11,510 nt of DNA, taken from the NCBI GenBank assembly GCA_963934255.1, contig CAWVXU010000084.1, positions 1 to 11,510 on the forward strand. Direction: 5' to 3'. The notes beneath the pieces were generated by a model. It was given only the letters and a program-made list of their open reading frames with translations. It was not told the DNA's origin and searched no databases. Position 1 is the stretch's first letter; each line of letters starts with the position of its first letter. A program made the translations under genes and the position numbers. This DNA is from an uncultured Fibrobacterales bacterium (GTDB taxonomy: Bacteria; Fibrobacterota; Fibrobacteria; Fibrobacterales; CAWVXU01). This document shows, one piece after another, positions 1 through 11,510 of this stretch.

Positions 1-2
1 AT

Positions 3-698
3 GCTCGTAGTCAAGGGATAGACAAATTAAAACGTCTTGGATTTCAACCTCGACCAGAAGAGATGTATTCTGCACTTGATTCAACTATGGATTATCTAGA
101 GCAACATCAGATTAAAAACATTGCGCTTCTTGCTCTGCCGGCTCTAGAAGAAGAAGCTAGAGCTGCTGGTATTAAATTATGGCAAGACACAAACTCATGG
201 GATGCCGAAGAATCAAATGACACACCTGATGCAGTCGTTCTGGCTTTTGATAAAAGCTTCACATGGTCTAAGCTTCGATGGGGGATGCGTCACATCAAAA
301 ATGGCGCTCAGTTTATTGCAACTCATCCCGATACTTATTGCCCGACCTCTGGGCTGTATGACCCAGACATTGGATGTTTGATTGCTGCGTTTCAAGCTGC
401 AGAATGCCCAGACCCCATAGTCATCGGTAAGCCATCTGATTTATTTCTCAAAAGCTTTTTAATTAAAAACAATCAAGTCGCCTCAAAGTGTGCATTGATA
501 GGTGATCGGATCTATACTGATATGGTCCTCGCCAATAAATTAAATATGCGCAGTATCTTGACATTGTCGGGTGAGGCCAAACAAATTGATGTGGATAATT
601 TGAAACAAACTGATGATAAAATAAAGATTCAAAACCAATCTATAGGACAGCCTCAGCTTGTGGTAAATTCAGTAGCTGATCTAAGTAATAATTTATAA
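3..698 (+). CDS. HAD-superfamily subfamily IIA hydrolase (NagD/PGP-like sugar or glycerol-phosphate phosphatase), 5'-truncated by the window edge
   Basis: The frame is open from position 3 (ARSQGIDKLKRLGFQPRPEEMYSA, matching the NagD-type KLxxLGxxxxxEExxTS segment), so the ATG at 63 is internal. Cap-domain motifs DAVVLAFD and FIATHPD, motif III IGKP and motif IV LIGDRIYTD...TLSGE are present. Motif I (DxD) lies upstream of the window. Confidence 0.9.
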   Translation, partial: ARSQGIDKLKRLGFQPRPEEMYSALDSTMDYLEQHQIKNIALLALPALEEEARAAGIKLWQDTNSWDAEESNDTPDAVVLAFDKSFTWSKLRWGMRHIKNGAQFIATHPDTYCPTSGLYDPDIGCLIAAFQAAECPDPIVIGKPSDLFLKSFLIKNNQVASKCALIGDRIYTDMVLANKLNMRSILTLSGEAKQIDVDNLKQTDDKIKIQNQSIGQPQLVVNSVADLSNNL

Positions 699-699
699 T

Positions 700-2721
700 C
701 TAATATTCTTTAAGCTCTTGTCTAAATAATATTTCCAAACTCTCCTTAAACTGATCAAAAGTCACGTCTTTGGATTTGAGCTCAGCTATATCTATCTGGG
801 GTAGGATGGTGATGGTTGAATCATAATAACCAGTATGATCACGATTTTCCCAAGCAGCCCGAGTCCCCTGGATAATAGTAGGTTGGATGATGGCACTAAG
901 AGACCAAGCAATTTTCATCCCACCGGGTTTGAAATTTCCTAGTTTACCTGTTTTGGATCGAGTACCTTCTGGAAATAAAACAATGCGAGTAAATTCATTG
1001 TTGGCTTCAAGTTTTTGAAGTGCTCTCATGGCCGAACGATGTTTTTTGCGGTTGACAAAAATACAACCTAGTTTGCGCATCCAATAGTGCAAGATCGGAA
1101 TCCTAGACAGTTCTACCTTGGCGATGAAGCCAAGCTTTTGATTAAAAGCAAGCAGGATCGCTGGGATATCCCCCCAAGATTGGTGATTGGCAATCACAAA
1201 TAGATGACGATCCTTGGGAGCATTAAAATTATGGGAAGATTTGACTTCAGCCTTAAAGCCCATATATTTTAAAACCCATCGACCCCAGGGAATAATGGCG
1301 TGGTCAATCCAAGCGTCTTGAGTTGCACGTTTAGCAAAAGTGTAAGGGGTGTATTTGATCATAATCCACGCCATATAAAGCATAATCATACAAAGGGCAC
1401 GTACACGATGCAGTATTAACATAAAAGCTCTCAAGTTGGTTCTAGGTACTCGAACCTTAAAAAACGGACTCGCGGGGAAAAATTGACTTTTACCACGCCA
1501 TAATCGAACTTTGCAATGTAGTAAATAGAGTCTTGTTTCTGCACGGGTGATAGCGACATAAAAGAGCCGCTCTTCTTCAGCCATCCGTTGAGATTTTTTA
1601 AAAATTTTTGGTTTGACAAAAGACTCCATATGAGGGAATAACCCATACTCCAGCCCGGCGATAAAAACCACTGGATATTGAAGACCTTTGGATGCGTGAA
1701 TACTCAGGACCTGAACGCCTTGATGAATATCATGAGCAATAGGGATGTCAAAATAAGACAACGCGGCTTGAAAATAACCCACCAGCCGATTTAACCTGAC
1801 CAAAATAGCGATACTGTTTAGATTTAAAAAAGGGTGTTGATGTAGGAGGGATTTAATTTCGTCTACTATCCATTCCACTTCATCAAACGAGGTTTTTGAT
1901 TGAATAAATCTTGGCTGGACAATTATTTTAGCAAAGATATCCTGAGGTGTTCTTCCATGTCGTAGTGTTTTCTTGAGGGACTTTTTTTTATCCACAAAAA
2001 GAGCATTGGCTAGATTTAAAATGGGCTGATTTGAACGGTAATTTTTTTCAAGCAAAATAGTGTGTAGAGGACTAAAGTATTGATCCAAACTCATAATCAC
2101 CTTGACATTAGAACCTCGAAAACCATAGATGGCTTGGTCATCATCACCCACAGCAAAGATATGCTGAGGATTGATAGCTTGACAAAACTGAAGCTGCTCA
2201 TCATTGATGTCCTGGAATTCATCAATGAGAAGTGCGTCAGGTTTTTGGAATTGTATTTTCATCTCCCAATCTGTTTTTGCATCCAAATCTATTTCTAGGT
2301 CTTTGCTTTGATTGAGAAGTAATTGAGTTGCTTGTGGAATCCAATCATCGATCACTGTTGGAATATTCATGTGAAAATGAGTCAAAATATTCCGTGCGAT
2401 GATATGAAATGTCTCAAGAGTTTCCGATGAGTTTATATAGTCTTCGCCCTGGCCCTTGAGTATGACTTGAGATCCAACACGATCGAGCTCATGATTTCGT
2501 TTTAAATATCGCTCACGCATTTCTGTAGCAGCTGCCCGAGTAAAGGTCATGCACCAAACATTGAAATCATAAGTCCTTTGTAAATAAATAATACGCTCTA
2601 TGAGTACGGCTGTCTTACCACTGCCGGCTCCTGCAATCACTAGACAATGAGATTTCAGAGGATTGTGTTCTATGGCTTCAACTTGTTGCGGATTAAATGC
2701 TATCATCAACATAAGACGCAT
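700..2721 (-). CDS. Fusion of a compact UvrD/Rep/PcrA-family SF1A helicase (N-terminal ~425 aa) and a PlsC-type 1-acyl-sn-glycerol-3-phosphate/lysophospholipid acyltransferase (C-terminal ~240 aa)
   Basis: Helicase motifs in order: Q motif NPQQVEAI, Walker A AGAGSGKT, Ia TFTRAAATEMRER, TFH, Walker B LIDEFQD, III VGDDDQAIYGFRG, IV LEKNYRS, IVa AILVRLN, V SIHASKGLQY, VI EEERLFYVAITRA. A hydrophobic helix follows, then acyltransferase blocks NHQSWGD (HX4D), FIAKVEL, FVNR and FPEGTRS. The start could be the ATG at 2721, 2712 or 2706. Confidence 0.88.
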   Translation of the reverse strand: MRLMLMIAFNPQQVEAIEHNPLKSHCLVIAGAGSGKTAVLIERIIYLQRTYDFNVWCMTFTRAAATEMRERYLKRNHELDRVGSQVILKGQGEDYINSSETLETFHIIARNILTHFHMNIPTVIDDWIPQATQLLLNQSKDLEIDLDAKTDWEMKIQFQKPDALLIDEFQDINDEQLQFCQAINPQHIFAVGDDDQAIYGFRGSNVKVIMSLDQYFSPLHTILLEKNYRSNQPILNLANALFVDKKKSLKKTLRHGRTPQDIFAKIIVQPRFIQSKTSFDEVEWIVDEIKSLLHQHPFLNLNSIAILVRLNRLVGYFQAALSYFDIPIAHDIHQGVQVLSIHASKGLQYPVVFIAGLEYGLFPHMESFVKPKIFKKSQRMAEEERLFYVAITRAETRLYLLHCKVRLWRGKSQFFPASPFFKVRVPRTNLRAFMLILHRVRALCMIMLYMAWIMIKYTPYTFAKRATQDAWIDHAIIPWGRWVLKYMGFKAEVKSSHNFNAPKDRHLFVIANHQSWGDIPAILLAFNQKLGFIAKVELSRIPILHYWMRKLGCIFVNRKKHRSAMRALQKLEANNEFTRIVLFPEGTRSKTGKLGNFKPGGMKIAWSLSAIIQPTIIQGTRAAWENRDHTGYYDSTITILPQIDIAELKSKDVTFDQFKESLEILFRQELKEY

Positions 2722-2731
2722 CAGGAAGGAT

Positions 2732-2737
2732 ATTATA
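2732..2737 (-). promoter_or_regulatory. Possible sigma70 -10 element (TATAAT) for the helicase-acyltransferase gene
   Basis: A perfect TATAAT on the - strand lies 10 nt before ATG 2721, just downstream of the peptidase terminator. There is no good -35 and no Shine-Dalgarno. Confidence 0.35.
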
Positions 2738-2747
2738 CAAGTTATTT

Positions 2748-2778
2748 AAAAAAAGGTGAGAGGCAAAAACCTCTCACC
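2748..2778 (-). terminator. Intrinsic terminator after the C1 peptidase gene
   Basis: Perfect 9-bp stem GGTGAGAGG (2755-2763) / CCTCTCACC (2770-2778) with a 6-nt loop, followed on the - strand by T7 (A7 at 2748-2754), about 50 nt after the stop at 2830. Confidence 0.85.
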
Positions 2779-2829
2779 AAAATTCAATAGAAATCCTTGC
2801 GTTAAAAACGATTGGAGCATTCATATTTT

Positions 2830-3774
2830 TTATTGCAAAACGACAAAAGCTTCTTTTAATATATCCATCATCACACTATAGTTAACCCATGCACGACCAT
2901 CGGTACCCCAATCTTCACCCCATGAATTAGTGAGTTGAAAGGCATTAATTGAATCGCTATAGCCAGAGACAACAATCGCATGACCAGAGCTAGAACCTTG
3001 ATAATCGTTTTCATCATAATAGTCATTATTAGAATTGAGATAAGTAAAATTATCATCGACATTGATACCGACAAGTAGAGGAACCTTTTCATCCAACCAA
3101 CTTTTCATTTGTTCGATATCTAATGCAATTCTTTTCCACTCCTTTAGTTTGTACTTGGCAGCTTTGGCTTTAAGTAAAGCCCCTTGAGCAGAACACTGAG
3201 AGTCATCATAAGGGAAATCACTCTCCATCACATCGCCATTTTCAACTAGGAATTGAGCCGCAAGGTGAGTGTAGGCTCCGCCGTCACAACCAGAGTCTTT
3301 GATTTGGTTATAGATATAAGCCGGAGAAAATCGACCTTGATTAAACCCTGTTTGATAATCATTGGTCTTGTTGTAATAATAACTGCGAATTGCACTTGAA
3401 GCCCAACCGGTGCAAGAACCTTGATAGCCTTGACTTAATATAGAAGGGAAGTATACCGAAAGGTCCGCTTGGCGAAAGAGGCTCACAGGGATGTCATCTT
3501 CTGGATTGGGGTCAATGGGTTCAGGGTTGTCAGGGATGACAATGACTGTGTCTGGGAGCCTCTCGTACTCAACGGAATCCATTAGGATACCACCAAGCTC
3601 ACCTAGGCCTAGCTCCTCGAGTCCTTGTATTAAGAGAGTATCTAATAATTGATTGAGCTCATCTTCACTAATGTTAAAATCACCGTCTTTGTCTGGATTA
3701 TCTAATAATTCACATGCACTAAAAAAAAGTAAGGATGAGATTGTTAGGAAAGTAAAAAGTTTTTTCTTGATCAT
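2830..3774 (-). CDS. Papain-family (C1A) cysteine peptidase lipoprotein
   Basis: Signal peptide MIKKKLFTFLTISSLLFFSA-C with a lipobox and an acidic Pro-rich linker PDNPEPIDPNPEDDIP. Catalytic residues lie in QGYQGSCTGW (oxyanion Gln and Cys), GHAIVVSGY (His) and NSWGEDWGTDG (Asn). FSPAYIYNQ and GCDGG are typical of bacterial C1A enzymes. Confidence 0.92.
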   Translation of the reverse strand: MIKKKLFTFLTISSLLFFSACELLDNPDKDGDFNISEDELNQLLDTLLIQGLEELGLGELGGILMDSVEYERLPDTVIVIPDNPEPIDPNPEDDIPVSLFRQADLSVYFPSILSQGYQGSCTGWASSAIRSYYYNKTNDYQTGFNQGRFSPAYIYNQIKDSGCDGGAYTHLAAQFLVENGDVMESDFPYDDSQCSAQGALLKAKAAKYKLKEWKRIALDIEQMKSWLDEKVPLLVGINVDDNFTYLNSNNDYYDENDYQGSSSGHAIVVSGYSDSINAFQLTNSWGEDWGTDGRAWVNYSVMMDILKEAFVVLQ

Positions 3775-3793
3775 AGGGGACCGTATTTTAACC

Positions 3794-4198
3794 TTATTTA
3801 AAGTAATAATCTAAAGTGGAGCCAATTTTCTTGAGTTGTACTGTTTTGCTTATAAAGCCTTTCATTACCGCTTGAAGATAAATCGACTTATCTGTATTCA
3901 TTGCATTGGCTGTTATGGCGATAATGGGAGCTTTGAGATCTAGGTGATTTTTTAAAATTGTTTCAGTCAATTCAACTCCATCCATTAGCGGCATTAGCAT
4001 ATCTATAAAGATAACATCATATTCATTTTCTGAAACTAATTTAATTACCTCAATACCATTCTCCGCTAGAGATGTTTTACTGAGAAACTTTTTTTGACGA
4101 GGGTAGCAAAGCCAGATCAAGTCCCACTTTACAACAGCTTTTACTACAACACTAATGTAAGCTATGTTGTGGCCAATAGTGATATATTGAGAAGGCAC
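3794..4198 (-). pseudogene. Truncated, decaying response-regulator receiver (REC) domain of the hybrid-kinase C-terminal type
   Basis: Similarity to REC starts only at ~4066 (AENGIEVIKL...YDVIFIDMLMPLMDG...PIIAITANAM...KGFISKTV). Beta1 with the acidic Mg-binding pair and alpha1 are absent, and the 44 codons from GTG 4198 do not resemble REC. Consensus AGM reads AVM and KP reads KT. Confidence 0.7.
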
Positions 4199-4266
4199 CT
4201 GCTCTACTAACTGCTCTTCCTTTTTTAGGTATGAATCCAGGTTGAGTATTAAAATGAGAATGTAAT

Positions 4267-4275
4267 ATTATAGCA
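4267..4275 (-). promoter_or_regulatory. Extended -10 promoter (TGnTATAAT)
   Basis: The - strand reads TG-C-TATAAT, a perfect extended -10, about 55 nt downstream of the operon terminator and pointing toward the REC remnant and peptidase. Confidence 0.5.
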
Positions 4276-4328
4276 CTTACAGCTTCTTTTACTCTAAGCT
4301 AATTATTCTATAAATACAATTCAAAATT

Positions 4329-4366
4329 AAGAAAAGCGCCAGCTAGATGTAGTTGGCGCTTTTCTT
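4329..4366. terminator. Bidirectional-type intrinsic terminator downstream of the three-gene envelope operon
   Basis: 17-bp arms AAGAAAAGCGCCAGCTA / TAGTTGGCGCTTTTCTT with one non-Watson-Crick position and a GATG loop. U-rich tails on both strands. It lies 35 nt after the stop at 4402. Confidence 0.85.
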
Positions 4367-4401
4367 GAATTATATAGCCTTACTTAAGGTGTTTGTAGTC
4401 T

Positions 4402-5643
4402 TTATTTGATGCTTAATTGAACTGAGTGCCCTTGATAAGAATCAACCGATAGAGTCCCGACACCATCAATCACACCACCATCAAGTGACTCACAAAGTGA
4501 TTCAACCGAGCCCGCATATTTGATATCAAGATCAAGATTGGGTTTATAAAACTTCCTTTGAGTTACATCTTCAGAGTGATTCTGGAAGAAAAATTTCACT
4601 TGCTTGATGTGGCTAAATTTCTTAATTCCTGCTACCGTGATAGTAATGGTTTGACCATCATTAGCTGATTTTCTCCAAGCTTCAACTAGTTTACCAAAGA
4701 ATTGATCTTGTGACTTTTTAGAACTCATCAGGTTTTTGACCGCTTTTTTAAAAGCACGATCGCCTGCAGTCATCTTATTGGGATGAACTTGAGCGGCTTG
4801 TTTGGAACCTGCGGCTAAGATGCGTTGACTCGAGACATTAATCGCTCTTAAGTTAAGCTGAGCTGAAGCTGATTTCATCGAAGTATTTTTGAAGGCTGAG
4901 TGATGAGACATATCTGACTCAGTCGCAATAGCAGTCCCAACGATAATCACATCAGCATTGACTTCTGCACCAAGTAAAGCCGCTGCGGCCGCATCACCAC
5001 CAAAGACGTACTTGAGGTCACGACTTTGAGTTAAGCGAAGTACTTGATTGGCATCCACAACTTCAAATTGGCGTTCTTTAAAAAAGTCAGTCAGAGCAGT
5101 TTCAACCGTACGGTGTTTGTCTTTATTAATAGAGCCCATGTTAGACTCTTCAATAATAAAAGCAATACGAGGATTACCCAAATCTTTCATCAAAAGAAGT
5201 AAGGCTGCGAGGTCTTTTTTTAGACCATCCTCAGAGACTAATGCTTCAATTTTTGTCTGGTAATAACCTTCAGGAGATTTTGTTTCTGAGATGATTTTTA
5301 CCGCTTTAATGTGGCCCATAGTTTGAGAAATAATTTGGTCTTTTTGGACCATAAAATTTTCAACTTCAGTTTTACTGACTAAGTTTTGACCAATGCCTTT
5401 AGCAAGAGCATCACGTTTGGCTTCAAGTAAAGCCTTGGCCTTTGTTGCGCCTATGCCTTGACCTTTGACGGTGATTGACTTGGCGTGACTCTCAGTAGAG
5501 AGTAATATAAGACAGAGACCCACCATTATCATCAAATTATTTTTAAACGAGGAAAAAACAGAAACAGGCGTGGCACCGAAAGATAAAACCTCCGCAAAAT
5601 TTAATCTACGAAGGTTTGAAATATTTGAATTCAGCGAATTCAT
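4402..5643 (-). CDS. Exported protein with an N-terminal FlgT-N/LPP20-like domain, a CsgG/TolB-N-like alpha/beta middle domain and a small C-terminal domain; function unknown
   Basis: Hydrophobic signal LMIMVGLCLILLSTESHA-K. N-domain pattern ITVKGQG..AKAKALLEAKRDAL...G..L.S.T.VENF...D.I....G.I. Middle pattern PRIAFII...VETALTDFFKERQFEVVD...AALLGAEVNADVIIVG...LRAINVSSQRILAA. The ATG at 5643 overlaps the upstream stop (ATGA); an alternative start lies near 5532. Family assignment is by pattern recognition only. Confidence 0.7.
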   Translation of the reverse strand: MNSLNSNISNLRRLNFAEVLSFGATPVSVFSSFKNNLMIMVGLCLILLSTESHAKSITVKGQGIGATKAKALLEAKRDALAKGIGQNLVSKTEVENFMVQKDQIISQTMGHIKAVKIISETKSPEGYYQTKIEALVSEDGLKKDLAALLLLMKDLGNPRIAFIIEESNMGSINKDKHRTVETALTDFFKERQFEVVDANQVLRLTQSRDLKYVFGGDAAAAALLGAEVNADVIIVGTAIATESDMSHHSAFKNTSMKSASAQLNLRAINVSSQRILAAGSKQAAQVHPNKMTAGDRAFKKAVKNLMSSKKSQDQFFGKLVEAWRKSANDGQTITITVAGIKKFSHIKQVKFFFQNHSEDVTQRKFYKPNLDLDIKYAGSVESLCESLDGGVIDGVGTLSVDSYQGHSVQLSIK

Positions 5644-6830
5644 TTACGCAGTTCCTTGATGCGACGGATAATCAAAAGAGCATCAGCACCAGAAACTTTT
5701 GCCATAGGTTGAATCTCACCTTGAAGGTTTGATTTCATGATACCCATGTCGGCCATGTTACAAATTGCGTTATAGTAAGGAGTACCCAGTGGTACGTCTT
5801 TAAAGCGTGAAGCTTCGTTACCTAGATGTTTGGTCGCAAGCTCAGGCTCGTTATTGACTGAAACAAGAATCGCTTCAATAAACATTGAGTAAGCCGAACG
5901 AGTGATTTTTTCAGCAGGATAGAATTTGTGGTCAGGTCCAGCTGTCAGTCCACGCACACCTAGGTTATGAAGATCTAGGATGAAGTTTTTGGCCCAATGT
6001 TTATCAATGTCAAGGATGTCAGCAATCTTCGTTGTCGTTTCAGTTTGCATTTCACGCTCGTCCTTAGGTGCTTCAAAAGTGTTATCATATACCTTGTCAA
6101 CACGCTTCTCAAGAATACGATCAAGCTCGAGTTCGCTAATGAAAAGAGCGGCAACATCAGCCTTAGTGATTTCATCAACTAGAGCAATACGACGACCTAC
6201 TTTAGTACCAGGCGCGGCGCGATTGATTTTCTGTACAAGTTCCCACTGGTCGTTTGCTTCTACTGTGTAGAGCTCATTCATATCAAGAACTTTGCGAAAT
6301 GCTTTCTCTGCTTTACCGAATTTAAGAGCAGACTTATAAAGTACACCGAGGCGGTATTGAGGTTCTGCCATTTTAGGGGCAACTTCGATCGCATCTTCAA
6401 AATACTCTTCAGGTTTTTCATACCAATCTTCATCTTTAGAATCAGTTAATTCATACTGGTAGCGAATACCCATAGCGATGTGCCCGTAAGGGCTTTTATT
6501 ATCAAGGTCAAGTGCCTCATCGGCAAAGTCTTCTGATTTTTCAAAAAGATCTTCCCGTTTGTCTTCGTCTTTTTCAAGAGTTGCTTTGGTTGCAGTGACT
6601 AGCGCCATACCAGCGTGTCCTGGAGCAAATTTTTTATCAAGAGAAAGAGCGAGTTTGAACTCCTCTTGAGCGCGGTCATTTTCACCTTTGTCCCAGTATT
6701 TTTTACCCTGATCAAAATGTGCTTGAGGTGTGTCCATCAGACCTTCGGCAGTACGATTTTTACTACATCCGACAAGAGAGGTAATAAGCGCAGTAGTTAG
6801 GACCGCTGTTGATAATTTAAAAAGTTTCAT
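5640..6830 (-). CDS. Lipoprotein with TPR repeats and C-terminal S-layer homology (SLH) domains
   Basis: Lipobox SLVG-C and RBS AAGGA. TPR-like units AHFDQGKKYW..AQEEFKLALSLD, GHAGMALV and QYRLGVLY..AEKAFRKVLDMN. SLH-like units DIDKHWAKNFI...G..D.KFYPAEKITRSAY and FKDVPLGTPYYNAICNMADMGIM..G.IQP..VSGADAL, plus a partial ITKADVAALF. Confidence 0.82.
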   Translation of the reverse strand: MKLFKLSTAVLTTALITSLVGCSKNRTAEGLMDTPQAHFDQGKKYWDKGENDRAQEEFKLALSLDKKFAPGHAGMALVTATKATLEKDEDKREDLFEKSEDFADEALDLDNKSPYGHIAMGIRYQYELTDSKDEDWYEKPEEYFEDAIEVAPKMAEPQYRLGVLYKSALKFGKAEKAFRKVLDMNELYTVEANDQWELVQKINRAAPGTKVGRRIALVDEITKADVAALFISELELDRILEKRVDKVYDNTFEAPKDEREMQTETTTKIADILDIDKHWAKNFILDLHNLGVRGLTAGPDHKFYPAEKITRSAYSMFIEAILVSVNNEPELATKHLGNEASRFKDVPLGTPYYNAICNMADMGIMKSNLQGEIQPMAKVSGADALLIIRRIKELRK

Positions 6831-6839
6831 TTTATTTCC

Positions 6840-7652
6840 TTAATCCACTAAGATGATAACGCGACAATCGCTTAAAAATTTCATAGAAGCACTAGCGGCT
6901 TTAATATCGTTGGCATCGACGTTACTGACAACTAGGTCAGTTTTAGAGGCACCTTTCACTTGAATTGCTTTGATAATACCCGGGCTTTTGCCAACACGAT
7001 CAGTCATTTTTTTGGCTTGCTCAGGAGATTTCGCATATCCTGCCATGCCCCATTTTTGTGCAAATTTACGAGTCACATAAGCTGAACCATAAATTTCTTT
7101 GCCATCTTCATCAAGGATACGAGGTGCGATCGCTGGCATGACTTTCATACCACGAGCATCGATAATCAGACCAGTAAAAGCTGAACCTGATTTACCTTTT
7201 GCAATTTTGTGTGCTTTAGCCCTAGAGCCAACTTCACTAGGAAGTAGAGCTTCCATCATGTCTTTACCAATTGGAATAGTCACGGTGATTTCAATTGTTT
7301 TATCTGACATGTACTTGGGTTCTGATTCGTCAAAAGTGCGAATAAAGCCTTGAACCTTTTTAGTAATCACATCGCTAGTCACCATAAAATTTTCAACAGT
7401 GGTTGTTGAATTAATATTAATGCCTTTCATGATTTCTAGAGCATTCCGAAGTGCCACAGATCGCGCAGCTTGGATCGCCATCGGACGAGCCGTTACGGCT
7501 GGAAATTTGGGATTGGGTGCACCAATACCTGTGGCAGTAATTGTTTTTGCGTTCCAGTCAATTTGACCTTTTCCACCAAATTTCTGAATTTGTGAATGAA
7601 CACTTAAAGGCAACGCAAGTAATAAGGCAGCCATTCTTAATTTTTTAATCAT
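6840..7652 (-). CDS. Exported LPP20-like protein (first gene of the envelope operon); function unknown
   Basis: The ATG at 7652 with an upstream AGGA gives the signal peptide MIKKLRMAALLLALPLSVHS-Q and is preferred over TTG 7709. N-domain IDW...ITATGIGAP...AIQAARSVALRNALE..KGINI.S.TTVENF is LPP20-like. C-domain FTGLIIDARG...PAIAPRILDEDGKEIYG...CRVIILVD. Confidence 0.75.
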   Translation of the reverse strand: MIKKLRMAALLLALPLSVHSQIQKFGGKGQIDWNAKTITATGIGAPNPKFPAVTARPMAIQAARSVALRNALEIMKGININSTTTVENFMVTSDVITKKVQGFIRTFDESEPKYMSDKTIEITVTIPIGKDMMEALLPSEVGSRAKAHKIAKGKSGSAFTGLIIDARGMKVMPAIAPRILDEDGKEIYGSAYVTRKFAQKWGMAGYAKSPEQAKKMTDRVGKSPGIIKAIQVKGASKTDLVVSNVDANDIKAASASMKFLSDCRVIILVD

Positions 7653-7790
7653 AATAAAATTTCCTACAAAGTAGACTTTTGACATGAGATAAAGATAACA
7701 CTTTGACAAGGATTTTTTTGTTATTGAAACCCCTATCAGTGAGCTAAATCACCAAATTTGTTAAGTTTAGCTCAAAGAGGCAGTTAAAGT

Positions 7791-8903
7791 ATGATTTACA
7801 TCGCATTTTTGGTAGGAATAATCGTATTAGTCTATGTAGCAATGATGCTGTATTTCACTTATGGCGTCCTCAAAATGCGCCCTTTACAGCAACTCTCTTT
7901 AGCCACCCCCCCCGTGTCGGTAGTGGTTCCATTGCACAATGAAGAAAACTACGCACTCAAAACCCTAGAATGCTTGGCTGCACAAGACTATACTGGTCAG
8001 TTCCAAATCATCTGTGTTGATGATCGATCGACTGATGCAACTCCCCAGATACTTGCTGACTTTTGCCAGGACAAGCCCAACTTCCAATTCCTCAGTATCC
8101 CGCTAGATGCTGACACTGTTCCATCGCCTAAGAAGCGAGCCCTTGAGACTGGTTTCAAGCTGGCTGATGGTGAAATATTTATGACCATGGATGCTGATTG
8201 TGAGCCGCCGATGGTGTGGATTAGCTCAATGGTGTCCAAATTTGTCGATGGAATTGATATTGTACAAGGTCCTAAGCGAATCTTATTAAAAGAGAATAAT
8301 ATTTTACAGAACTATCAGACTATTGATACTCTGGGATTTACGCTAATAGAAGGTGCATTTTTTACTCTCAACAACCCTATGTTAGCCAGTGCGCCCTCGC
8401 TGGGATATCGCCGTGAACTCTACGAAAAAGTGGGTGGATTTGATGGTCTACGAGAGTTGGTCTCTGGTGATGACGATATGTTGGTTCAAAAAATGTCTGA
8501 GCACGCTCAAGGAATCGGCTATAACCTTGATCCTGAAGCTCAAGTTGGCACGGCTCCCATGCTCACCTGGAAGGGTTTGTTTTCTCAAAGGGCGAGATGG
8601 GCGAGTAATGGTGCTGAATATGATTCCAAACTTTATATCATTCTTTTACTTTGCGTCTATTTTTTCTTTGTTTGGTGTCTGATCGCCCCTCTGCTTGGGA
8701 TTCTCGGGTGGATGAGCTGGAGTTTGATTATCGGGTTTTATGTAATCAAAATACTTGTAGATTTTTTGTTCCTCTGGTGTGGTGCCCGTAAGCTTCAATG
8801 TACTCAGATTGTTTTTCGAAACTTTTTTGTGGGATGGCTAATCCAAATCCCACTCAGTGCTTGGGCGGCTCCTGCAGGGCATTTCAAATGGTACAAATGG
8901 TAA
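7791..8903 (+). CDS. Membrane-bound family 2 glycosyltransferase (D,D,D,QxxRW type)
   Basis: RBS GAGG and an N-terminal TM helix. Motifs VSVVVPLHNEE, VDDRSTD, KKRAL, DAD, SGDD and QRARW. Several C-terminal hydrophobic helices. Confidence 0.92.
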   Translation: MIYIAFLVGIIVLVYVAMMLYFTYGVLKMRPLQQLSLATPPVSVVVPLHNEENYALKTLECLAAQDYTGQFQIICVDDRSTDATPQILADFCQDKPNFQFLSIPLDADTVPSPKKRALETGFKLADGEIFMTMDADCEPPMVWISSMVSKFVDGIDIVQGPKRILLKENNILQNYQTIDTLGFTLIEGAFFTLNNPMLASAPSLGYRRELYEKVGGFDGLRELVSGDDDMLVQKMSEHAQGIGYNLDPEAQVGTAPMLTWKGLFSQRARWASNGAEYDSKLYIILLLCVYFFFVWCLIAPLLGILGWMSWSLIIGFYVIKILVDFLFLWCGARKLQCTQIVFRNFFVGWLIQIPLSAWAAPAGHFKWYKW

Positions 8904-9154
8904 AGGACACAAAAAAATCAAAATTACAGGTAAATCATTCTAATTCTAACATCTCAACATTATTAGCATTAACTGCATGTGGTACTATGGGTGATTTAGC
9001 TAAAGGTTTACCTGGTGGTGATTTAATTGCTGCTGGAGTAAAAGCAAAAGAGCTTGCTGACAAAGCTGAAAAATTCAATGAAAATATTGCTAAGAGAACT
9101 ACTCAATTAGCCGGGTCTAAAGCAGCTGAAACCAAAGCAACTGAAGCTCAGTAA
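8897..9154 (+). CDS. Small Ala/Lys-rich lipoprotein-like ORF (85 aa), possibly with a damaged 5' end
   Basis: The ATG at 8897 overlaps the GT2 stop. Lipobox LLALTA-C is followed by an amphipathic helical segment, AAGVKAKELADKAEKFNENIAKR. From 8951 the codons are strongly biased (GCT, GGT, TTA, AAA). A terminator follows. The first 33 codons of ORF 8798..9154 are a GT2 overlap. Confidence 0.6.
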   Translation: MVKDTKKSKLQVNHSNSNISTLLALTACGTMGDLAKGLPGGDLIAAGVKAKELADKAEKFNENIAKRTTQLAGSKAAETKATEAQ

Positions 9155-9184
9155 TTTTCTTTTTTGAATAAATCTAAGTAATAA

Positions 9185-9220
9185 AAATAACGCTATCTTT
9201 TAATTAAGGTAGCGTTATTT
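9185..9220. terminator. Bidirectional intrinsic terminator between the convergent lipoprotein ORF and cca
   Basis: 15-bp arms AAATAACGCTATCTT / AAGGTAGCGTTATTT (one G-U pair on the + strand) with a TTAATT loop and A/T-rich flanks. It abuts the cca stop codon. Confidence 0.8.
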
Positions 9221-10673
9221 ATTTGCTCATAGCATTTTTAAGCCAGAGAAGTGCAGTGTCTTTATCTTCAAAAGCTTCATCCATTTGCATTTCAAAACAA
9301 GCCTTAAGAGCAGGTCCAAACTGAGGTCCCGGAGTATATCCAAGGGAGATTAAATCCCGTCCTTGATACCATGCAGTAGGAGCTTCATCAAACACTCCCC
9401 AGTTTTTAGCAGAGTGGACTAGACCAATGATGTCAGAAGTAAATTGAATCTGATCCAAATCAGTGGGCTGAGGATTACTCAGTAAAGTAGTCTTCCATAT
9501 TGACCGGGATTGACCGAGCCCATCAAATTCCTTGCGACCTTTTAAATCAAGCTTGAGACTTTTGATCCATAAGATAAGTGCAAACTCTTGAATAGGACAA
9601 TCCAGTGCAATCCGTCTAATCACGCCAGGTAAAATTTGCGACATTTGCGATATTTCAGACAAGTCATGACTCATGTCATCCGAGTCTCTCAATTGAACGA
9701 CGTCATTTCGATATCTAAACCAAGCCCGACGTCGCGCCTGAACACGTTTGATGAGTTTAATATCATTCGTGAACCTGGCCAAAAAAGAATCCATCACAGC
9801 ATCATCTAAATCAAGCCCCAGTAGAGTATACATAAACACCAATTGATCGCGTTCATCGTCAAAATAATCAAGATAAAGAGTGGCAGTATTTAGCTGAAGC
9901 CCTAATTCAAATTCAGGATTTTGACTCTTAGCGCTAGACTTACTTAATTCATCACGAGTAGGTATCAAGCTCTCAAGCTCCGGGAAAAAGCGCAAAAGCT
10001 TCATCTCACGAATGAGCCATAAGCCTTTAGAAATATGAGTCGATTTTAAAAGAAGCTTTTTGAACTCTTCCTCAAATCGCTCCGTCGAAAGTTCACTCAA
10101 ATCTTGTTCGGCACAAATATCAACCGTAGCCTGAGGGACTGTCAAATCAAATCTGCTAGCAAATTGGATTGCCCTGAGAGCTCGGAGCGGGTCTTCACCA
10201 AAAGCAGGACCCACATGCTTGAGTAATCGGTTATCTAAATCTTGCTGGCCCTTTTGTGGGTCAACAATTTGACCTGTGACGAGATTAAATCCCATCGCAT
10301 TGATGGTGAAATCTCGACGCTGACTTGCTGTTACAAAATCCAAAAATGGATCAGATTGTATCTCAAATCCGCGATGACCATCACCAATTTTGACTTCAGT
10401 ACGTGGGAAAGAAAAATCATATTGCACATCCAAATGTCGCATGAGATAGACACCAAAAGATTTACCTACAGATGATGCTTTACCATAACGATTGAGGATT
10501 GCGAGTAAAACTTCTTCCTCGAGTCCGGATACTTCCACATCATAATCTTTAGAATCAACGCCTAAGATATGGTCGCGAACCCAGCCGCCCACCAAATGTG
10601 ACTCACCACCGAGCTCATGGATGTCATGAGCGATGTTTAAAAGGAATTTTGGAAGTATTTCAAGACTTTGCAT
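9219..10673 (-). CDS. cca: Class II tRNA nucleotidyltransferase (CCA-adding enzyme / poly(A) polymerase family) with a degenerate HD domain
   Basis: Motif A VGGWVRD...DYD, flexible loop PRTEVKIGDGHRGFEI, motif B RRDFTINAM, motif D EDPLR, motif E ERFEEEFKKLL and C-terminal GRDLISLGYTPGPQFG. The ATG at 10673 (upstream GGGG) is preferred because the 10742 start would overlap trpF. Confidence 0.88.
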   Translation of the reverse strand: MQSLEILPKFLLNIAHDIHELGGESHLVGGWVRDHILGVDSKDYDVEVSGLEEEVLLAILNRYGKASSVGKSFGVYLMRHLDVQYDFSFPRTEVKIGDGHRGFEIQSDPFLDFVTASQRRDFTINAMGFNLVTGQIVDPQKGQQDLDNRLLKHVGPAFGEDPLRALRAIQFASRFDLTVPQATVDICAEQDLSELSTERFEEEFKKLLLKSTHISKGLWLIREMKLLRFFPELESLIPTRDELSKSSAKSQNPEFELGLQLNTATLYLDYFDDERDQLVFMYTLLGLDLDDAVMDSFLARFTNDIKLIKRVQARRRAWFRYRNDVVQLRDSDDMSHDLSEISQMSQILPGVIRRIALDCPIQEFALILWIKSLKLDLKGRKEFDGLGQSRSIWKTTLLSNPQPTDLDQIQFTSDIIGLVHSAKNWGVFDEAPTAWYQGRDLISLGYTPGPQFGPALKACFEMQMDEAFEDKDTALLWLKNAMSK

Positions 10674-10732
10674 GACCCCAAAGTAGCAACTTAAATGTAT
10701 TTTTAGAGCACACAGACCAAAAGGAGAATACC

Positions 10733-11356
10733 ATGGTAGCACAAATCAAAGTTTGCGGCATTACTCAGCTCGACGATGCACTGATGTGTGAAGCACTCGG
10801 TGTAGACCTTTTGGGATTTAATTTTGTGGAGTCATCACCAAGATACATCGAGCCTTTGATGGCCGATGAGATTATTGCTGAGATTTCACCTGACACGGTT
10901 TGCGTGGGTGTTTTTCAAAACCCATCTCAAGAAGAAGTCAGTGAAGCCATCGATATGAGCGGTATTGATATGCTTCAATTTCATGGCAGTGAATCCCCTG
11001 ATTTCCTAGCTGAATTTGACATCCCTTGTATCAAAGTTTTCTCAGTGACTGATGATTTTAATCCGGCTAGCTTGGAGCCTTATATGAATGTTGCTGACTA
11101 TTTCTTATTTGATTCTCAAGTAGGTGATCAAGAAGGTGGCACCGGTGTGACTTTTGATTGGTCCAAAATTTCAGGTGTTGTTGGTGACAAGCCTTGGTTC
11201 ATCGCTGGCGGAATCGGACCCGGTAATATTGTTGAAGCAGTCACGACTCTCAATCCCCAATACGTAGACATCAACTCTCAAGTTGAAAAAAGTCCTGGCA
11301 CCAAAGACATCTCACTTGTACGTGAGTGTGTGGAGTTGATTGAAGGACTTTCTTAA
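10733..11356 (+). CDS. trpF: N-(5'-phosphoribosyl)anthranilate isomerase
   Basis: RBS AAGGAG. Motifs IKVCGIT (catalytic Cys), GFNF..SPRYI, VGVF, LQFHGSE, LFDS (catalytic Asp), GGTGVTFDW, IAGGIGPGN and VDINSQVE..PG.KD. Confidence 0.96.
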   Translation: MVAQIKVCGITQLDDALMCEALGVDLLGFNFVESSPRYIEPLMADEIIAEISPDTVCVGVFQNPSQEEVSEAIDMSGIDMLQFHGSESPDFLAEFDIPCIKVFSVTDDFNPASLEPYMNVADYFLFDSQVGDQEGGTGVTFDWSKISGVVGDKPWFIAGGIGPGNIVEAVTTLNPQYVDINSQVEKSPGTKDISLVRECVELIEGLS

Positions 11357-11485
11357 GTCGCAAATTTACTTATACTGCATTTATTTTCTATGGTAGTAAA
11401 ATGGTCCCCTGGGCTTTTGTAGGCCGCGAATTTACTTACACTACATTTGTTTTCTATCACACTAAAACAGTCCACTGGACTGTTT
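11354..11485. repeat. Two tandem, diverged 66-bp units (11354-11419 and 11420-11485)
   Basis: An ungapped alignment by eye gives 50/66 identity, with the core CGCRAATTTACTTAYACTRCATTTRTTTTCTAT. TTCTTAAG occurs at both 11350-11357 and 11495-11502. Confidence 0.85.
11465..11485. repeat. REP-like palindrome AAACAGTCCA-C-TGGACTGTTT
   Basis: Perfect 10-bp inverted repeat with a 1-nt centre in unit 2. The matching segment of unit 1 is degenerate (AAATGGTCCCCTGGGCTTTTG). Confidence 0.7.
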
Positions 11486-11510
11486 CTTGACGTGTTCTTA
11501 AGCTAGATGC

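Follow-up and report, generated by a model that had tools for sequence, protein, structure and literature searches.

A UvrD-type helicase without subdomain 2B, fused in frame to a second PlsC-family acyltransferase in Fibrobacteria, with a probable internal start at the junction

The fused gene and its two halves

The window analysed here is a stretch of 11,510 nucleotides (assembly GCA_963934255.1, contig CAWVXU010000084.1, positions 1 to 11,510) from an uncultured Fibrobacterales bacterium. On its reverse strand, between positions 700 and 2721, it carries a single open frame of 673 codons, in which a UvrD-type helicase of superfamily 1A (SF1A) is joined to a PlsC-family lysophospholipid acyltransferase. 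The frame matches the Pfam profiles UvrD-helicase (1.8e-36), UvrD_C (2.5e-33) and Acyltransferase (9.6e-24), each above its cut-off. The helicase motifs AGAGSGKT (residues 30-37), TFT (59-61), TFH (104-106), DEFQD (167-171) and GDDDQAIYGFR (192-202) are followed by NYRS (227-230), R309/N311, HASKGLQ (342-348) and EERLFYVAITRA (382-394). A hydrophobic stretch (442-455) separates them from the acyltransferase motifs H513-X4-D518, FVNR (555-558) and FPEGTRS (583-589). Since the three closest relatives begin at M6 (position 2706), this is probably the true first codon. The features of the locus are listed below.

700-2721 (-): whole fused open reading frame of 673 codons, probably beginning at M6 (2706)
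1456-2703 (-): residues 7-422, the UvrD-type SF1A motor, in which 1A and 2A are complete, 1B is shortened and 2B is absent by alignment
2611-2634 (-): Walker A, AGAGSGKT (K36); K36 in 82/82 fused genes covering the site
2209-2223 (-): Walker B, DEFQD; D167 and E168 in 83/83
1714-1764 (-): site of the missing 2B; residues 320-336 in place of ~200 residues of UvrD1/PcrA
1423-1455 (-): variable linker; in 81 genes it follows an S-x-F-L/F motif, is 10-18 codons long, stays in frame and has no stop
1428-1432 (-): Shine-Dalgarno-like GAGAG, from -10 to -6 relative to the internal ATG; with -2.7 kcal/mol a modest signal in the window
1420-1422 (-): in-frame ATG inside the fusion (M434), where translation of a free acyltransferase of 240 residues is predicted to begin
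700-1422 (-): lysophospholipid acyltransferase of the PlsC family (residues 434-673); the model places helices 430-462 and 465-487 in an N-terminal two-helix membrane motif
1168-1185 (-): acyltransferase motif I, H513-X4-D518; H and D in 83/83
955-975 (-): acyltransferase motif III, FPEGTRS; FPEG and R588 in 82/82 covering the site
2755-2778 (-): intrinsic-terminator-like hairpin and T run ending the upstream peptidase gene; 3 such hairpins against 2.0 in shuffles, weak by count

The hairpin is followed by a TATAAT (2737-2732), read from the sequence and not called by the program scan. This arrangement suggests that the fusion gene is probably transcribed alone in the window.

The source assembly consists of 138 contigs, which raises the question of an assembly or annotation artefact. 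The stretch was compared with contigs of four marine runs (X1, X5, X6 and X7). One X1 contig spans the whole stretch with five substitutions, and an X5 contig, which comes from a different study, covers positions 1347-1737 including the junction with zero differences. The junction is not covered by X6 and X7, and no indels are listed across the four runs. Given this independent contig, the 77 fused entries in the protein set and the in-frame junctions in 85/85 genomes of the neighbouring Fibrobacteraceae-type family, an artefact can practically be dismissed, and the indel at the junction that would have undone the first, sequence-only reading of the window is not there. That reading had reported a 673-codon fusion with the motifs of both halves intact; the missing 2B, the short 1B and the start-type codon at the junction are additions to it. 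Over 14 independent close pairs, the ratio of nonsynonymous to synonymous change (dN/dS) is 0.083 in the helicase half and 0.076 in the acyltransferase half. Both halves are thus intact and under purifying selection, and the fusion is genuine. An AlphaFold model of the frame, built on a 39-row alignment, has good local and low global confidence (pLDDT 83.8, pTM 0.57); its best Foldseek matches are UvrD, PcrA and Rep, and the TM-score over the target is 0.75 against Thermotoga maritima PlsC (5kym).

In an alignment of 83 fused genes, motifs Q, I, Ia, Ib, II, III, IV, IVa, V and VI, named as is customary for SF1A, are invariant or nearly so, and the model predicts the tandem RecA-like 1A/2A fold. 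Motifs IVa and V are separated by 29-98 residues (median 42) in the fused genes, as compared with 203-214 in five canonical UvrD/PcrA proteins, and residues 320-336 of the window's protein correspond to residues 392-593 of UvrD1. Because this spacing is so far below the canonical one, subdomain 2B is, as judged by alignment, absent, and the four-subdomain layout of UvrD, PcrA and Rep proper is not found. The spacing is also short in unfused orthologs (30-39 residues), and ~495-residue proteins named Chitinispirillia are likewise without 2B; it follows that the loss of 2B is older than the fusion and phylum-wide. Subdomain 1B is short in the window's lineage, with 63 residues between motifs Ib and II against a median of 116 in the fused genes and 128-139 in canonical proteins. 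Motif V is GLQ in 83/83 fused genes, where canonical proteins have GLE. Residue 408, which in the model lies within a hairpin that we take to be the separation pin, is aromatic. Here and below, families, genera, genomes and loci are labelled f, g, G and L, f1 being the window's lineage and f3 the Fibrobacteraceae-type family mentioned above. In genus g4 (L005-L016, L063), Walker A reads AAAGSGKT and not AGAGSGKT in 13/13 genomes.

The fused helicase shares all ATPase and single-stranded-DNA-binding motifs with UvrD, PcrA and Rep (PDB 2is4, 1pjr and 1uaa), its top sequence and fold matches. It differs from them in the loss of 2B, the halved 1B of the window's lineage, Gln for Glu in motif V and the lack of their C-terminal domain. 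Its scores stay far below the NCBIfam equivalog cut-offs of these proteins (210.5 against 911.2, 191.8 against 1144 and 183.2 against 951 bits). Apart from the fusion, the window's genome encodes a PcrA-like protein of 782 residues, a UvrD-like one of 683 residues and a RecB/AddA-like one; the 2B-less helicase is thus an extra paralog. Escherichia coli helicase IV and HelD are also UvrD relatives that, according to PMC8655204, differ from UvrD outside 1A/2A, and the helicase IV model aligns gap-free across the 2B site of the fusion. Unlike these proteins, the fusion has no N-terminal domain or clamp arm, its Walker A being at residue 30, and it stays below their cut-offs (132.7 against 543 and 42.9 against 419).

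The deletion is the same as that engineered in Rep and in mycobacterial UvrD1. By this likeness, the fused helicase is likely an ATP-driven 3′-5′ translocase that is active as a monomer. Removal of 2B makes Rep an active monomer (PMC6412110), weakens protein displacement (PMC6158625) and turns UvrD1 into an unchecked helicase with slower growth (PMC13646824), so that the unmasked activity harms cells (PMC13646824; PMC6412110). In contrast to these constructs, the fused helicase is natural, phylum-wide and under purifying selection.

The acyltransferase half contains the HX4D, FxxR and FPEGTR motifs, is above the Pfam cut-off of PF01553, and its catalytic motifs, aligned with 5kym, are invariant among the 83 fused genes. 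It shares with 5kym a conserved Lys as well, and its model helices 430-462 and 465-487 match the N-terminal two-helix membrane motif of that structure. A true transmembrane span was considered and rejected: the best 19-residue hydropathy, 1.65, is borderline, and a monotopic helix as in T. maritima PlsC (TmPlsC) fits better. Since the first helix of TmPlsC, as described in PMC6688108, enters and exits the membrane on one side, we infer that both domains of the fusion would lie on the cytoplasmic face.

The genome of the window has plsX, plsY and another plsC, plus a 1192-codon frame with the same domain. The other plsC, on contig C75, passes the TIGR00530 cut-off of 102.95 with a score of 108.7, and the fused copy, at 98.3, is just under it. 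In a tree, the fused acyltransferases and the housekeeping PlsC proteins of the same genomes form separate clades (100/100). The separate canonical genes that the sequence-only reading had proposed to look for, namely a PcrA-like helicase and a plsC, are thus both present. The fused acyltransferase is not the genome's principal PlsC; its sequence fits an accessory lysophosphatidic acid acyltransferase (LPAAT) paralog, for which there is precedent in PlsC4/PlsC5 and YihG, second paralogs beside a principal PlsC (PMC9541089). It differs from these and from 5kym in being joined to a helicase and in forming a clade apart from housekeeping PlsC. Most likely, it would add a particular acyl chain at the sn-2 position beside the housekeeping enzyme.

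Distribution and origin of the fusion

We searched 296 genomes of the phylum with the helicase half. Among 150 of 217 matches listed, 124 are in f3, and 121 of these lie in open frames of at least 692 residues, the three shorter ones stopping at contig ends. Where the f3 junctions could be read, the two halves are fused in frame in 85/85 genomes of 12 genera (the contig of G234 breaks before the junction). Conversely, a search with the acyltransferase profile found the helicase in all 52 best long proteins. Named relatives of the fusion are Fibrobacteria throughout, and database names of the fused proteins reflect one half only. In a scan of GTDB contigs, which was dominated by ordinary UvrD genes, the fusion accounts for 3/80 loci.

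For f1, the lineage of the window, three fused relatives were found, at 46-49% identity. In the one remaining f1 genome, which is 78% complete, the acyltransferase gene is free, and nothing matches the helicase in full. Elsewhere the halves are separate. In f7, the acyltransferase ortholog is the next gene, with its own start and an overlap or a gap of a few bases, at 17/17 helicase loci (the f7 acyltransferase tally includes the unpublished G253, on which alone no claim depends), and the single helicase locus of f6 (1/1) has the same arrangement. In G262, the two genes share a frame and are divided by just one TAG. The helicase stands alone in f2, f4, f5, f8, f19, f20 and f21. The f5 acyltransferase is unlinked to it, elsewhere in 5/6 genomes, and with the query used no acyltransferase ortholog was found in f2 (0/2), f4 (0/2) or f8 (0/12). 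Genus g29 has the acyltransferase without an adjacent upstream helicase at 11/11 loci (11 of its 12 genomes examined); in three g29 genomes searched whole, no full-length match to the short helicase was detected, only canonical two-piece matches. The arrangement that the sequence-only reading had named as refuting the fusion, two separate genes throughout the relatives, is thus not seen in the nearest large family but is seen in f6 and f7.

Because the same genes are separate neighbours at 18/18 loci of f6 and f7, the fusion almost certainly originated, to judge from gene order, through loss of the stop codon between two adjacent operon genes. An old two-gene operon that lost its stop is the simplest origin, either once with later splits or several times. 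The fused helicases do not form one clade: each of the 200 bootstrap trees needs 3 changes, and the approximately unbiased (AU) test gives p 0.046. In the acyltransferase tree, the window's copy clusters with two free ones (96/95; AU p 0.066).

The sequence-only reading had also proposed a sensor-effector pair in which a helicase sensor activates a lipid-modifying effector. An anti-phage form of this idea has some appeal, since Gabija GajB is likewise a short UvrD-like ATPase and the best PADLOC matches of the fusion are the GajB and RTasHel models (2e-48 and 1e-41). However, housekeeping PcrA/UvrD models score higher (4e-62), and no nuclease partner, such as the gajA gene adjacent in Gabija, was found in the window or in annotated neighbours. 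The acyltransferase half is found, with one match each, in 147/151 f3 genomes among housekeeping neighbours, near-universal and vertical in the family, unlike patchy defence genes. A GajB-like system acting on membranes is therefore very improbable, and a sensor-effector pair in general is not supported: the two halves also occur apart, and the acyltransferase is a second PlsC paralog.

In several relatives, the fusion lies among envelope genes (for an LPG-synthase-TM protein, a glycosyltransferase and a racemase). In G029 (L029:6603-10583), the fusion gene is directly upstream of dnaA, and in many other f3 genomes it overlaps a racemase gene and comes after an LPG-synthase-TM gene. A record titled Sodaliphilus sp. 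(L128:3431-5572) holds the full fusion; Sodaliphilus is a Bacteroidota genus, and a mis-titled bin seems likelier than transfer.

As for the rest of the window, a HAD-IIA phosphatase gene (1-698, +) is convergent with the fusion gene, the stop codons being 1 base apart; it is convergent with the unfused helicase gene in both f2 genomes, too. Upstream of the fusion, on the same strand, lie a papain-family (C1) peptidase gene with a lipoprotein-like N-terminus (2830-3774, -), ending in the terminator-like hairpin and not found at this place in the relatives compared, and a lone response-regulator receiver domain (3794-4198, -), which covers profile positions 24-107 of 111 and looks N-terminally truncated. 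A three-gene cluster (4402-7709, -) encodes a 289-residue protein without a Pfam match, a TPR and SLH protein (396 residues) and a 413-residue FlgT_N/CsgG-like protein (ESM Atlas). In f4, this cluster is found upstream of the helicase gene; two f3 genera have the 413-residue gene there. The window further contains a GT2 glycosyltransferase gene (7791-8903, +), a CCA-adding-enzyme-like gene (9219-10742, -) and TrpF (10733-11356, +).

The probable internal start and read-through at the junction

The codon at the junction, M434 in the window, is of a start type in 83/83 genomes (75 ATG, four GTG and four TTG); five of the 83 were read one alignment column over, in genes without the following Pro. 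Each Val at the junction is encoded by GTG and each Leu by TTG, the product of per-gene codon use being 1.4e-4 with kinship uncorrected. Other Met-rich columns contain many different codons, save M548, which is invariant and has no Shine-Dalgarno (SD) sequence, and M450, 16 codons downstream of the junction (80 ATG, two CTG and one TTG).

Pairing with the anti-SD was calculated for the usual bacterial sequence, the 3′ end of 16S rRNA not having been found in the window's genome. The mean is -4.37 kcal/mol at the junction and -1.60 at 984 other internal ATGs; synonymous shuffles gave -2.72±0.18, and 0/200 were as strong as the actual sequences. The window's genome has 553 clear gene starts, and even these pair more weakly on average (-3.31); a G peak at -10 to -8 is seen both there and at the junction. 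In 12/12 genera, the junction SD is stronger than that of the gene's other start-type codons. In 27 genes, the junction region is weakly folded (-3.7, whereas values at greater distance are about -5 to -9). Synonymous divergence is 0.135 in the linker versus 0.27-0.32 elsewhere (107 sites, binomial p 3e-5). Free acyltransferase orthologs in 5 genomes start 77-80 codons before motif I; for the window's junction codon the distance is 78.

Thus, a conserved ATG, GTG or TTG at a domain boundary, a conserved SD and reduced synonymous change are found together across the family. The same signature was applied to arcB (bioRxiv 10.1101/520783). Genes with in-frame internal starts, such as arcB (ArcB-C), infB, clpB and mrcB, are comparable in having a conserved start and SD at a domain boundary; in the fusion, the internal start appears instead to be the original start of a once-separate gene for an unrelated enzyme. 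We consider it very likely that this start is used. That the acyltransferase's own start is kept inside the fusion is a new observation, and it makes two in-frame products likely.

Several points weigh against this. The window's own SD is modest, at -2.7 kcal/mol, and 26% of the gene's other start-type codons have one as strong; the mean in genus g6 is only -2.83 (42 genomes); L129, a named Fibrobacter record, has the junction ATG and an SD score of 0; and the p-values are overstated, the genomes being kin. One could therefore suppose that there is one product only, the junction Met and the purine stretch being kept for protein reasons or as a relic. The weak SD in the window and in g6 would fit this, as would M450, which is 96% ATG as well. 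However, the junction codon is replaced by GTG and TTG alone, while CTG occurs among the substitutions at M450, a codon without an SD (-1.71). Moreover, the purine motif is not tied to one codon phase but occurs in all three, it coincides with more than 30 different residue pairs, and synonymous change is suppressed even among close pairs. A single product is thus unlikely. P0322, a 241-residue gene call that begins at the junction Met, is not independent evidence, since other calls begin at the next Met. Published proteomics (PMC6851124) has no UvrD in its main text; a 28 kDa PlsC and two DNA helicases in its supplement could not be tied to the gene, and four short peptide motifs had no match in three supplement files, which may hold no peptide sequences.

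The frame through the linker was analysed in 81 genes, from genomes retrieved by the helicase half and not picked as fusions. In the five codons after the helicase, there are 135 amino-acid changes and 0 stops, where 11.9 stops would be expected at 0.088 per missense change. All 11 changes in linker length are of whole codons, and a stop is present in 75/162 out-of-frame linker windows. Read-through is, on this sequence record, selected, which would mean that something is needed at the C-terminus of the helicase, with the means for making free acyltransferase also kept. Alternatively, the operon may have collapsed by chance, the acyltransferase being harmless cargo and only the two activities selected. 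The failure of the fused helicases to form one clade is in keeping with such a view, as joining and splitting seem easy, and another class has tail-less helicases. Nevertheless, a neutral linker should regain stops or frameshifts, of which 0 were seen against about 12-25 expected, and the out-of-frame stops point the same way; tolerated collapse is accordingly improbable. Programmed frameshifting was also considered and rejected: an in-register slippery heptamer precedes the junction in just 29/81 genes, with no background computed, and is not conserved.

Possible membrane anchoring and the meaning of the fusion

What the helicase may need at its C-terminus is suggested by its unfused relatives. 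In 14 genera, these have C-terminal tails of 15-32 residues, all net basic, and in 11/14 the tail is basic and amphipathic (helical hydrophobic moment at least 0.45, charge at least +2); among 1379 ordinary C-termini encoded by the window's genome, 16% qualify (p 7e-4 and 1e-6 by rank tests). Such tails resemble membrane-targeting helices such as that of MinD. The tail of the L223 helicase (G247) repeats a short basic-hydrophobic unit ~4 times, a natural amplification of a putative membrane helix. In view of these tails and of the harm done by removal of 2B, PlsC may replace the amphipathic tail, the fusion being an anchor that confines an unbraked helicase and no allosteric switch, a proposal for which we see about even chances.

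Other observations speak against an anchor. The tail signal is moderate, as 3/14 genera fail and only 3/14 reach p<0.05 alone, and the f7 tails overlap the ribosome-binding site of the next gene. At 6/6 loci of f11, f13, f15, f16 and f17, the 2B-less helicase has neither a tail nor an acyltransferase neighbour, and in the protein set 83/95 short stand-alone proteins lack a tail of at least 12 residues; loss of 2B thus does not require a membrane anchor. The model also leaves the long pre-fusion neighbourhood of the two genes unexplained. Tethering of the motor to the membrane, which the sequence-only reading had put forward, nevertheless stands as the best reading, the two-helix membrane motif being predicted.

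That reading had also proposed functional coupling. In the form weighed here, DNA or ATP binding by the motor would control acyl transfer, or lipid state the motor, so that chromosome status and phospholipid synthesis would be linked. In its favour are the fused or adjacent genes in two orders, the selected read-through, the invariant active sites of both halves and the envelope genes around the fusion in several relatives. However, the internal start would yield a helicase-free enzyme, there are lineages with the helicase alone and lineages with the acyltransferase alone (f5 has both, unlinked), and the linker varies in length and sequence. The combination of pLDDT 83.8 with pTM 0.57 is what a model of independent domains would be expected to give. 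Acyl transfer responsive to DNA or ATP is therefore not supported, and coupling of either kind is unlikely.

On balance, we lean towards a conserved fusion of a 2B-less helicase and a second PlsC with a kept internal start, two products and a membrane-held helicase. In this scheme, the helicase gene and the acyltransferase gene would have adjoined in an operon, and the stop between them would have been lost while the downstream start was kept. In the full-length product, the acyltransferase helices would keep the helicase on the cytoplasmic membrane, at its inner face, and the second product, begun at the internal start, would be a free 240-residue acyltransferase. The acyltransferase would stand in for the basic amphipathic tail, anchoring and confining the unbraked motor. 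Both halves come from known families, and an internal start is nothing new in itself; the fusion is real and new as a combination of them. No description of the fusion protein was found in the literature searched, which left subscription journals largely outside.

Subdomain 2B is the accepted brake of UvrD-family helicases, and its removal harms cells. A phylum-wide, natural 2B-less paralog under selection thus makes it possible to ask directly how such a motor is kept in check, and membrane tethering, if true, would be a new answer. The fusion also illustrates a cheap route to a joined protein, in which a stop is lost and the downstream start stays, which would leave the cell with the free enzyme and add a membrane-anchored version. 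A bolder version, which we regard as a long shot, is that the unbraked motor is controlled by the membrane and not by a domain of its own, the two starts set the ratio of helicase-bearing to helicase-free enzyme, and the form with the helicase ties DNA engagement at the membrane to the synthesis of a particular phospholipid. If true, this would be a direct coupling of chromosome to lipid, undescribed in bacteria.

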